Shown here: positions 53,775 to 55,276 of the stretch, piece after piece | Position numbering within the stretch: position 1 is the first letter of the stretch | Layout of the letters: every line of letters starts with the position of its first letter | NCBI GenBank assembly: GCA_003537755.1 | Contig: DPQS01000008.1 | Coordinates: forward strand, 11,704-67,787 | Direction: 5' to 3' | Source: Clostridiales bacterium | Lineage (GTDB): Bacteria > Bacillota > Clostridia > Christensenellales > CAG-314 | Length of the DNA stretch: 56,084 bases | The notes under the pieces: generated by a model | Databases searched by the model: none | What the model was told of the DNA's origin: nothing | Seen by the model: only the letters and a program-made list of their open reading frames with translations | Translations under genes and position numbers: made by a program

Positions 53775-54365
53775 ATGTACAAAGATTTACTTACGGAATT
53801 TATGACGGCGGAGAAAAACGCCGTAGACGAACTTATACGACAGACGGGAAAGCAGTACGACAAAGTAATCGACGCGCTTCTCGGGTGCCGCGGCAAAGTG
53901 GTGTTTTTCGGCATAGGCAAAAGCGGACACATCGGCGCGAAACTTGCCGCAACCTTTGCCAGCACCGGCACGCCTGCTATGTTTGTACATGCGGCGGAAG
54001 CGCGCCACGGCGACTTCGGCATGATCGAGCAGCGTGACGTTGTAATTTTGCTTTCCCACAGCGGGACGACAAGTGAAACGACGTCTGCGGTAGCCTCGCT
54101 TAAAAACATCGGTTGCAAGACCATTGCCTTTTGCAAGAGTGCCGACAGCCTGCTTGCCAGGGAGTGCGACCTTGCAATCAACTACCCATTTGACAAGGAA
54201 GCCGACCGCATGGGCGTAGCACCCAGCAGCAGTACCACGGTACAACTGGTGCTTGGCGACGCGATCGGGCTTACGCTGTCCGCGCTCAAGGGCTTTACAC
54301 GAGAAGATTTTCACAAGTTTCACCCGGGCGGCGCACTGGGCAAAATGCTGGAGGAACACAAATGA
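53775..54365 (+). CDS. single-SIS-domain D-arabinose 5-phosphate isomerase (KpsF/GutQ-like, no CBS domains)
   Basis: [56 protein letters not shown] and [15 protein letters not shown] match the API SIS-domain signature. The protein ends at ~196 aa, before any CBS pair. Confidence 0.7.
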   Translation: [196 protein letters not shown]

Positions 54366-55276
54366 GCGTACTTGTAGTAGGCAGTTTTGTAACAGACCTT
54401 GTCGCGCTGTGCGAACGCGCACCCGAGGCAGGCGAAACATTGCACGGCAAAGAGTTTAATATCTACCTCGGTGGCAAAGGCGCAAATCAGGCTGTTGCGG
54501 CAAAGCGCATGGGCGCAGACGTGACGATGGTAGGGTGTGTAGGTAACGACATTTTCGGTGACGACTTTGTAAAGACATTTACCGAAGAAGGTTTTGACAC
54601 GCAGTACATCAAACGCACGAGCAACGCTCGTACGGGTTGCAGCCTTGTTACCCTTGAAACCAACGGACAAAACCGCATCTGTATGACACCGGGAGCAAAT
54701 CTCGAGTTTACGACCGACGACCTGTATGCGCTGGAAAGCCTTGTAGAAAAGGCAAACATAGTGGTGACTCAATGCGAAATGCGTCCCGAGATAGTTGACG
54801 AACTGGCAAAACTTTGCACAAAACACAACAAAAAATTTGTGCTGAATCCTGCCCCTGCCCGCACGTTCAAGGGCGAAACGCTTGCGGCGTGCTACGTAAT
54901 ATCGCCCAACGAAACGGAACTGGGGGTAATAGTGGGTCGCACGCTTAACACCGACGAAGAGTTTGTGTCCGCAGCAAAGGAACTGCTTACAAAGGGCGTA
55001 AAGAACGTAATAGTTACGCTTGGCAGCCGCGGAAGCCTGCTCGTAAACGCAGATACTACGCAGATTGTGCCTGCCATGAAAGTGAAAGCGGTGGACACGG
55101 TAGGCGCAGGCGACTCGTTTACCGGCTCGCTTGCGGCGTTCCTTGACGAAGGAAAGGATGTGTTGTCGGCGATGAAACTTAGTACGATTGTGGGCGGCTT
55201 GCAGGTACAGAAGCACGGTGCGATTCCGTCCATGCCCTACCGCGCGGAAGTGGACAAAGTGGCAAACGGCAAGTAA
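54362..55276 (+). CDS. ribokinase-family (PfkB) pentose kinase
   Basis: ATGA overlap with the upstream stop. GGKGANQAVAAKRMGA (ribokinase signature 1) and DTVGAGDSFTGSLAAF (signature 2) are present. The N-terminus reads VVGSFVTD. Confidence 0.8.
   Translation: MSVLVVGSFVTDLVALCERAPEAGETLHGKEFNIYLGGKGANQAVAAKRMGADVTMVGCVGNDIFGDDFVKTFTEEGFDTQYIKRTSNARTGCSLVTLETNGQNRICMTPGANLEFTTDDLYALESLVEKANIVVTQCEMRPEIVDELAKLCTKHNKKFVLNPAPARTFKGETLAACYVISPNETELGVIVGRTLNTDEEFVSAAKELLTKGVKNVIVTLGSRGSLLVNADTTQIVPAMKVKAVDTVGAGDSFTGSLAAFLDEGKDVLSAMKLSTIVGGLQVQKHGAIPSMPYRAEVDKVANGK

Follow-up and report, generated by a model that had tools for sequence, protein, structure and literature searches.

We analyzed a 56,084-nucleotide stretch of Clostridiales bacterium DNA (contig DPQS01000008.1 of GenBank assembly GCA_003537755.1, positions 11,704 to 67,787; hereafter the window) and found that two of its genes, which overlap and encode a KpsF/GutQ-type SIS protein and a ribokinase-family (PfkB) kinase, probably form a salvage module for D-arabinose. 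Judging from the two protein families and their gene context, the module would lead from D-arabinose through D-arabinose 5-phosphate (A5P) to D-ribulose 5-phosphate (Ru5P), at the end of a Gram-positive-style D-arabinan locus. In the proposed pathway, a lipoprotein of the family GH183 (GH183b), possibly together with a large surface protein, would cut D-arabinan outside the cell, and an ABC system would take up the oligosaccharides. The cytoplasmic enzymes GH183a, GH183c and GH172 would then free D-arabinofuranose, and the ribokinase-family enzyme would phosphorylate its O5 to give A5P (EC 2.7.1.54). Finally, the SIS enzyme, which lacks CBS domains, would convert A5P to Ru5P in the catabolic direction (EC 5.3.1.13) and thereby feed the pentose-phosphate pathway. 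What we infer in this scheme is which substrates are used, in which order the reactions run, where in the cell they take place and that a LacI-family regulator exerts control. A D-arabinose route through A5P, with the kinase acting before the isomerase, had been the core of the original prediction for these genes, and all of our comparative in-silico tests agree with it.

The SIS protein resembles A5P isomerases

The SIS protein has 196 residues when read from the ATG at 53775, which is the start that gene callers chose on 16 public contigs; an alternative in-frame TTG start is found upstream at 53757. By Pfam, this protein, whose chain ends at residue 196, has a single SIS domain (1.8e-28) but is devoid of CBS domains. 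The TGA of its gene overlaps the ATG of the kinase gene in an ATGA at 54362-54365, and a GGAGGA Shine-Dalgarno sequence precedes the kinase ATG at 6 nt. The ORF coordinates, the presence of the originally quoted peptide in the translation and the Pfam result thus bear out the original description of a ~196-aa SIS protein without CBS domains that is joined to the kinase by this ATGA overlap.

Against the NCBIfam models, the SIS protein scores 188 bits with KdsD, 184 with KpsF and 174 with GutQ, and the next SIS family follows at 43 bits. The three scores are under the full-length cut-offs of the respective models (505, 203.7 and 481) because the match spans just the SIS half of each model. From its sequence relatives, the protein is placed in the CBS-less subgroup that is typified by PDB 5UQI and 3ETN. 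Its best solved relative is 5UQI/5VHU (E = 6.5e-58), followed by the SIS domain of E. coli KdsD (2XHZ) and then by Bacteroides fragilis 3ETN. Five residues, K49, H78, E101, E142 and H183, are invariant among 16 CBS-less homologues and correspond at a constant offset of 10 to K59, H88, E111, E152 and H193 of KdsD (2XHZ chain), which we take to be the catalytic residues.

We located the 5UQI protein, an A5P isomerase (API) of the c3406 type, in an E. coli genome on an island adjoining the metV tRNA genes. Like the window protein, this API (PDB 5UQI/5VHU) consists of a single SIS domain of ~198 aa, and the two proteins are 54% identical over 185 residues in a gapless alignment with the same catalytic positions. 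The gene neighbors are unlike those in the window: the metV-island gene is accompanied by genes for a PRD antiterminator, an EIIC component of the phosphotransferase system (PTS), a MalY/PatB-family protein and a phosphoglycerate dehydrogenase, and the island has neither a ribokinase-like gene nor a glycoside hydrolase. The phosphate would come from the PTS on the island, whereas it would come from the kinase in the window. More generally, PTS components in place of a kinase accompany CBS-less SIS genes in retrieved loci (L-numbers; P-numbers denote protein clusters) from enterobacteria and lactobacilli, namely the E. coli island (L103:3258-8486 of E. coli SCU-172), L096:4392-8591 and L097:454-8606; in Companilactobacillus, the SIS gene is found with PTS-GAT components, Eda and a protein of the DHDPS family. 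A PTS may thus deliver the phosphosugar in these organisms.

These relatives bear on the alternative that the pair handles another pentose or related furanose, such as a modified or deoxy pentose from the same glycans, and that the SIS enzyme acts on a phosphosugar other than A5P. Such a substrate would be compatible with the fact that our assignments are deduced from homology and context alone, with the occurrence of CBS-less SIS homologues in PTS operons of undefined substrate, and with the PGM/PMM-type and GFO/IDH/MocA enzymes that are added to the pair in L015. On the other hand, all five API catalytic positions are invariant, the closest characterized SIS relatives are APIs, and D-arabinofuranose is the only product known for GH183. 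In addition, the aldolase-type loci described below would also give D-arabinose if their substrate is 3-deoxy-D-manno-octulosonic acid (Kdo). We therefore regard another pentose as rather unlikely.

The kinase has an altered ribokinase pocket

The kinase has 304 residues and matches Pfam PfkB at 3.4e-72, and its alignment with E. coli ribokinase (RbsK; PDB 1RKD/1GQT), which has the same PfkB fold, is gapless at 35% identity and an offset of 4. In E. coli ribokinase numbering, which is used hereafter, the window kinase retains I110, the catalytic D255 and the contacts D16, G42, K43, N46 and E143. Unlike RbsK, it carries valine in place of N14 (V10 in the window kinase), serine in place of A98 (S94), valine in place of I100 (V96) and methionine in place of I112 (M108), so that 4 of the 11 positions of the complete RbsK ribose pocket are changed. 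It also fails the enterobacterial ribokinase model NF008353 (266.7 bits vs 341). The gene is located outside any rbsDACBK operon, and a ribose context of the RbsK type (rbsDACB or ribose-releasing enzymes) is absent from the locus, which instead contains GH183, GH172 and an oligosaccharide-type ABC system.

The changed position 98 belongs to a part of the pocket that has been linked to D-arabinose. In E. coli ribokinase, the 2'-OH of arabinose is faced by a hydrophobic lid surface made up of Ala98, Ile100 and Ile110 (PMC9604405). The wild-type enzyme has a kcat of 180 s-1 and a KM of 0.15 mM for ribose compared with 1.9 s-1 and 470 mM for D-arabinose, and the A98G variant reaches a kcat of 29 s-1 on D-arabinose, a 15-fold gain (PMC9604405).

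We compared this position among 25 kinases that are linked or fused to a SIS protein and found glycine in 13, serine in 5 and alanine in 7 of them, while Asn14 is kept in only one of the 25. By contrast, Ala98 is present in all six SIS-unlinked kinases (those of E. coli, Vibrio cholerae, Staphylococcus aureus and human, the second kinase of L038, and P0205). Across 133 family representatives, Ala98 is present in 83% and Asn14 in 67%, and Gly98 or Ser98 is nearly always accompanied by loss of Asn14; all of these are raw counts that ignore phylogeny. A prediction made within the well-supported clade of the window kinase also held: P0186, which has Ser98, is found in a GH172-GH183-SIS-kinase locus, whereas P0205, which is 56% identical to the window kinase and has the canonical N14, A98, I100 and I112, is found in a SIS-less locus beside ADP-ribosylglycohydrolase genes. 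In that locus (L100:5273-12589), which may serve ribose salvage, a transposase gene precedes P0205, and two ADP-ribosylglycohydrolase-family proteins adjoin it.

Several observations weigh against the D-arabinose assignment. First, the kinase passes the NCBIfam ribokinase equivalog TIGR02152 (338.7 bits at a cut-off of 299.65), which, together with the PfkB match, is also what upholds the original statement that it carries both ribokinase signatures. Second, Ala98 is kept in 7 of the 25 linked kinases, and the abundant P0261 clade keeps it while sitting in a GH183-GH183-LacI-SIS-kinase operon. Third, the deep nodes of the neighbor-joining kinase tree have less than 50% bootstrap, and the linked kinases are therefore not demonstrably monophyletic. 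Finally, in L099 the pair is joined to a Bmp-type nucleoside transporter, which would be equally suited to ribose. In view of the seven linked kinases and the P0261 clade with Ala98, we take the residue signature as supportive, not diagnostic; Gly98 or Ser98 as a diagnostic signature was rejected for the P0261 clade, which has Ala98 yet is linked to GH183 and SIS.

In another alternative, the kinase would be an ordinary D-ribokinase, and the SIS protein, without carrying catabolic flux, would form or consume A5P as a regulatory signal, such as the effector of LacI. The TIGR02152 score, the retention of all direct sugar contacts and the nucleoside-type transporter of L099 are in line with an ordinary ribokinase. 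For the regulatory half, the API of Clostridium tetani (Cech et al. 2017) offers a Gram-positive comparison, as its isomerase activity has reportedly been demonstrated. In later papers that cite that work, the role of Gram-positive APIs is called unknown or possibly regulatory (PMC5758725, PMC8470653). However, ribose-releasing enzymes are absent from the GH172/GH183 loci, ribose 5-phosphate requires no SIS enzyme, and the linked kinases have lost the Asn14/Ala98 motif, which the unlinked P0205 and the second, SIS-unlinked kinase of L038 retain. The gene fusions and the interleaved transketolase gene described in the next section further indicate consecutive, flux-carrying steps. Taken together, we consider the combination of a ribokinase with a regulatory API unlikely.

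The SIS-kinase pair is conserved and repeatedly fused

The SIS and kinase genes are arranged identically on 16 independent public contigs, most of which come from human-gut metagenomes; this constancy and the strong profile matches indicate that it is not due to chance. Beyond the window species, the pair occurs in 16 further loci of diverse Bacillota, with linked kinases that are 36-72% identical to each other. Thirteen of these loci (L011-L016, L038, L091-L094, L098 and L099) came from the search with the SIS protein, two (L102 and L185) from a search with kinase homologues, and one (L116) from the search with GH172. The profile search of genome contigs with the SIS alignment gave 80 loci, of which ~8 were informative and the rest were mostly Gram-negative KdsD; in all informative Bacillota loci obtained through the SIS protein, the SIS gene is followed by a ribokinase-like gene. 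The metagenome search with GH172 likewise gave 80 loci, which were mostly unrelated GH172 loci. The nearest named relative at the window locus is L014, from a metagenome-assembled Acutalibacteraceae genome.

In at least 10 protein clusters, the SIS protein and the kinase are fused into one polypeptide, and both domain orders are found. The SIS domain comes first in P0251-P0254, P0370, P0371 and P0374, and the kinase comes first in P0373, P0376 and P0396. Each fusion combines a KpsF-type SIS half, which is 36-57% identical to the window SIS protein, with an RbsK-type kinase half. The occurrence of fusions in both orders suggests repeated selection for the coupling of two consecutive steps.

The neighboring enzymes connect these two steps with central metabolism. 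In L091, a transketolase gene separates the SIS gene from the kinase gene; in Sporolactobacillus terrae (L098), the pair is followed by genes for transaldolase and transketolase. P0430, a 589-aa protein among the relatives of the SIS::PfkB fusion, is itself a fusion of PfkB with the N-terminal part of transketolase. These neighbors and the PfkB::transketolase fusion are a direct link to the pentose-phosphate pathway. Among the relatives of the SIS::PfkB fusion, we also noticed P0455, a 1363-aa ROK::SIS::KDPG-aldolase fusion.

The module recurs in contexts that may supply D-arabinose

GH172 and/or GH183 accompany the pair in 8 of the 17 loci (the window, L012, L014, L091, L092, L102, L116 and L185), and we found no other candidate D-arabinose enzyme in these eight. 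The enzymes of GH183 act as endo-D-arabinanases, and those of GH172 include exo-alpha-D-arabinofuranosidases (PMC10115798, PMC10509167).

A second context is formed by aldolase operons that resemble those for sialic acid. L013:4682-11532 and L094:4875-11981 each contain an IclR regulator, a TRAP transporter, a DHDPS-family aldolase, the SIS protein and the kinase, to which L094 adds RbsD/FucU and YhcH-like genes. L011:8576-13769 contains an aldolase, RbsD/FucU, a SIS::PfkB fusion, a BNR_2 sialidase-like protein and an MFS transporter. The orthologous DHDPS-family aldolases of these three loci are 48-65% identical to each other and score far under the DapA and NanA cut-offs. From this gene content, the three operons are candidates for the catabolism of Kdo or another 3-deoxy-ulosonate, probably of Kdo-like acids, and their aldolase is a candidate gene for EC 4.1.2.23. 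Kdo aldolase splits Kdo into pyruvate and D-arabinose. The glycoside hydrolase and aldolase contexts, both of which would be expected to yield D-arabinose, thus point independently to the same pentose.

In the third context, RbsD/FucU and a monosaccharide transporter form free-sugar operons with the pair, as in L015 (Clostridium pascui), L016 (Virgibacillus ndiopensis), L093, L098 and L099; in L015, the SIS homologue is located between a ribose-type ABC transporter and the ribokinase-like kinase. The RbsD/FucU pyranase occurs in 7 of the 9 loci without glycoside hydrolases vs 0 of the 8 loci with them. This distribution fits a furanose-specific kinase, since furanose freshly released in the cytoplasm would be trapped directly while a sugar that has already equilibrated would need the pyranase. 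The same module, therefore, appears to serve wherever free D-arabinose arises.

The GH172 search gives a more mixed picture. The SIS-kinase pair is present in only 1 of its 80 loci (L116), FucI in two and an FGGY kinase in two; most sampled GH172 loci are without the pair, which adds to the points on the other side, and GH172 alone was discarded as a marker of D-arabinan loci because it is such a poor proxy. In L117:1669-10999, L171:4-3062 and L111:1831-4363, GH172 adjoins either an FGGY kinase or a homologue of FucI (62% identity with the E. coli enzyme), and alternative D-arabinose routes thus occur beside GH172. Both solutions are therefore seen among the metagenomic GH172 neighbors, with FucI in L117 and L171 and with SIS and kinase in L116.

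Organization of the locus

From 41992 to 55276, every gene in the ORF list with its Pfam matches is on the plus strand, and the kinase gene is the final one (Table 1). By Pfam, the locus combines GH183, GH172, a transporter and a regulator, which is the gene content of a D-arabinan utilization locus with predicted activities. Its last four genes, for GH183c, LacI, the SIS protein and the kinase, form a promoter-to-terminator unit, as indicated by the promoter-like site upstream, two 4-bp overlaps and the terminator downstream. This unit closes the D-arabinan utilization locus, which has three GH183 genes, one GH172 gene and an ABC importer. The LacI regulator and the cytoplasmic DUF4185 protein that the original prediction had placed upstream of the pair are both found there, the latter being GH183c, which has no signal peptide. 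Besides the SIS protein and the kinase, we found no further candidate D-arabinose enzyme in the locus.

Table 1 Features of the D-arabinan utilization locus (positions in the window)
Feature	Position	Strand	Evidence and remarks
GH183 (DUF4185) paralogue a, predicted cytoplasmic, endo-D-arabinanase family	41992-43131	+	Pfam DUF4185 5.1e-59; no signal peptide
Solute-binding lipoprotein of ABC importer	43209-44588	+	Pfam SBP_bac_8, SBP_bac_1; lipobox LVAC
Two ABC permease genes	44600-45526, 45538-46446	+	Pfam BPD_transp_1 in both
GH172 (DUF2961), exo-alpha-D-arabinofuranosidase family	46452-47555	+	Pfam DUF2961 1.2e-83; no signal peptide
Large surface protein, 894 aa (862 aa from ATG at 47670)	47574-50258	+	No Pfam match
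GH183 paralogue b, lipoprotein, predicted extracellular endo-D-arabinanase	50255-51508	+	Pfam DUF4185 4.4e-68; lipobox
Perfect palindrome TGTTGACAAAATGTCAACA, candidate LacI operator	51569-51587	+	Spans the -35 box upstream of GH183c
Promoter-like site TTGACA-17-TATTAT	51571-51599	+	11/12 positions; -35 box within the palindrome
GH183 paralogue c, predicted cytoplasmic, first gene of the four-gene unit	51614-52735	+	Pfam DUF4185 3.9e-65; no signal peptide
LacI-family regulator	52732-53727	+	Pfam LacI and Peripla_BP_1/3/4; start overlaps GH183c stop by 4 bp
CBS-less KpsF/GutQ-type SIS gene, predicted A5P isomerase	53775-54365	+	Pfam, NCBIfam, alignments
Ribokinase-family (PfkB) gene, predicted D-arabinofuranose 5-kinase	54362-55276	+	Pfam, NCBIfam, alignment
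Intrinsic terminator, 19-bp hairpin followed by UUUUU	55414-55456	+	Fold energy -27.4 kcal/mol, z-score -7.4

The glycoside hydrolases bear on a further alternative, in which the target is an alpha-D-fructofuranoside, such as a difructose dianhydride, and the kinase is a fructokinase. GH172 does include alpha-D-fructofuranosidases (PMC8605356), another point to be set against D-arabinose, and D-fructofuranose and D-arabinofuranose have a common ring stereochemistry. However, the locus has three genes of GH183, whose known members are all endo-D-arabinanases, the kinase reaches 339 bits with the ribokinase model but 84 bits with the fructokinase model, and fructose 6-phosphate requires no KpsF-type isomerase. 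A fructofuranoside target is, therefore, very unlikely.

We also considered a biosynthetic role, in which A5P from the SIS protein would be used to make Kdo or a similar surface sugar. Classically, APIs have this function, and some Bacillota have Kdo gene clusters, but the biosynthetic APIs of Bacillota have CBS domains and adjoin kdsA and kdsB (PMC8470653). In the window, the SIS gene follows LacI within a glycan-degradation operon, and no kdsA or kdsB was recognized among the annotated ORFs of the 56 kb. In addition, a kinase for a free pentose has no place in the synthesis of Kdo from Ru5P. We regard biosynthesis as the least plausible of the alternatives and as very unlikely.

The palindrome TGTTGACAAAATGTCAACA is present as a single copy in the window and also in the same-species contigs L001-L010. 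It was found in none of the other loci retrieved by then, including L091, whose SIS protein is 75% identical and which was also checked by eye. With one copy in the window and a distribution confined to the window species, it is treated here as a candidate operator. A LacI regulon could not be defined through this palindrome, which is not conserved in L091.

The gene callers placed the start of GH172 at 46467. The large surface protein downstream of it carries a signal peptide, contains Cys-rich repeats (CxxHxDxNxDGKCDxCG) in its C-terminal part and is anchored to the membrane at its C terminus. Its counterparts occupy the same place in related loci, in several of them between GH172 and GH183, and it is perhaps a new D-arabinan-binding or D-arabinan-degrading protein. 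Among the ORFs of the locus, Pfam gave no match to a GH116 exo-beta-D-arabinofuranosidase (subfamily 4, as in Microbacterium), and the 894-aa surface protein, which has no family match, is a possible stand-in for this enzyme.

Relation to known D-arabinose systems

The D-arabinan loci of Dysgonomonas gadei (PUL42) and Microbacterium arabinogalactanolyticum resemble the window locus in that they combine GH183, GH172, a transporter, a regulator and downstream sugar catabolism. Their catabolism is isomerase-first, in that a fucose-isomerase-type enzyme acts before a kinase; the window has neither of these two enzymes and has a kinase and a phosphosugar isomerase instead. Fucose isomerase was the most abundant carbohydrate-active protein of D. 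gadei on D-arabinan, and the Microbacterium locus encodes a putative isomerase and a kinase. The window also lacks a recognizable GH116 exo-beta-D-arabinofuranosidase, unlike Microbacterium.

In E. coli, the FucI/FucK/FucA route starts from the same substrate but runs through D-ribulose and D-ribulose 1-phosphate, which is then cleaved. The original prediction had contrasted the window pair with this fucose route; that contrast is correct for E. coli but too narrow, as the isomerase-first routes of the characterized D-arabinan loci are also relevant. A genome-scale model predicted rbsK as an underground D-arabinose route of E. coli, whereas laboratory evolution gave fucR mutations instead.

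The closest precedent for the chemistry is enzymatic. Volk reportedly described D-arabinokinase and phosphoarabinoisomerase activities in Propionibacterium pentosaceum in about 1959-1962, that is, the same conversion of D-arabinose through A5P to Ru5P in a Gram-positive organism, known as enzyme activity only. A 2007 survey listed EC 2.7.1.54 and EC 4.1.2.23 as orphan activities without sequence and named P. pentosaceum as the source of one orphan (PMC1940265). Because D-arabinokinase (EC 2.7.1.54) is such an old orphan activity, the chemistry of the route is probably not new. In the searchable literature, we found no gene, operon or D-arabinan link for EC 2.7.1.54, and within the searchable full texts no paper assigned genes to a natural pathway from D-arabinose through A5P to Ru5P. 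The gene assignment, the spread of the module in Bacillota, its link to D-arabinan loci and its likely link to Kdo-type aldolase operons thus appear not to have been described before.

A wider interpretation would join these contexts. The module, with RbsD/FucU as an optional part, would be the gene basis of EC 2.7.1.54 and a third widespread D-arabinose pathway of Bacillota, and its context of TRAP transporter, aldolase and YhcH-like anomerase would represent Kdo catabolism. We put this forward as a tentative proposal that is more doubtful than the salvage module of the window itself. If the Kdo part is true, the orphan Kdo aldolase (EC 4.1.2.23) would also gain a gene, and gut Gram-positives would harvest mycobacterial-type arabinan and a core sugar of Gram-negative lipopolysaccharide through one two-step funnel.

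If the salvage module is as proposed, it would give a catabolic physiological role to Gram-positive CBS-less APIs, for which the later papers mentioned above speak of an unknown or regulatory one, and it would provide candidate genes for the orphan D-arabinokinase activity. It would also mean that the "ribokinase" labels from public annotation pipelines conceal a distinct pathway. In uncultured human-gut Clostridia, the module would supply the metabolic end of the degradation of mycobacterial and corynebacterial cell-wall D-arabinan, by a route that differs from the isomerase-first route of the two characterized systems. Moreover, a kinase naturally adapted to D-arabinose would be useful for the synthesis of arabinonucleoside drugs, which now uses engineered E. 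coli ribokinase with a KM of >300 mM (PMC9604405).

Other features of the window

A separate locus at 7357-31236 resembles a host-glycan utilization locus. It contains GH20, a lacto-N-biose phosphorylase (8967-11180), an ABC system, a GH123-like protein, a GH38 alpha-mannosidase, a DUF6259 protein and a six-hairpin glycosidase, as well as two proteins of >1000 aa without a family match. The DUF6259 protein is encoded at 27663-29795, and another member of this family directly adjoins GH172 in L092 (L092:2421-4736); DUF6259 may be an undescribed glycosidase that is tied to arabinan or arabinomannan breakdown.

Between the two glycan loci, the region 31538-34372 has a GC content of 0.38 compared with ~0.47 in the flanks and encodes a WYL/WCX-domain protein, a DUF2971 protein and an unknown protein. 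It resembles a small mobile or defense-type insert. Finally, a 32-nt perfect direct repeat is found at 55519-55550 and 55700-55731. Its second copy consists of the 3' end of tRNA-Glu(CTC) and 11 further nt, and the repeat may have been left behind by a duplicated tRNA or an integration site.

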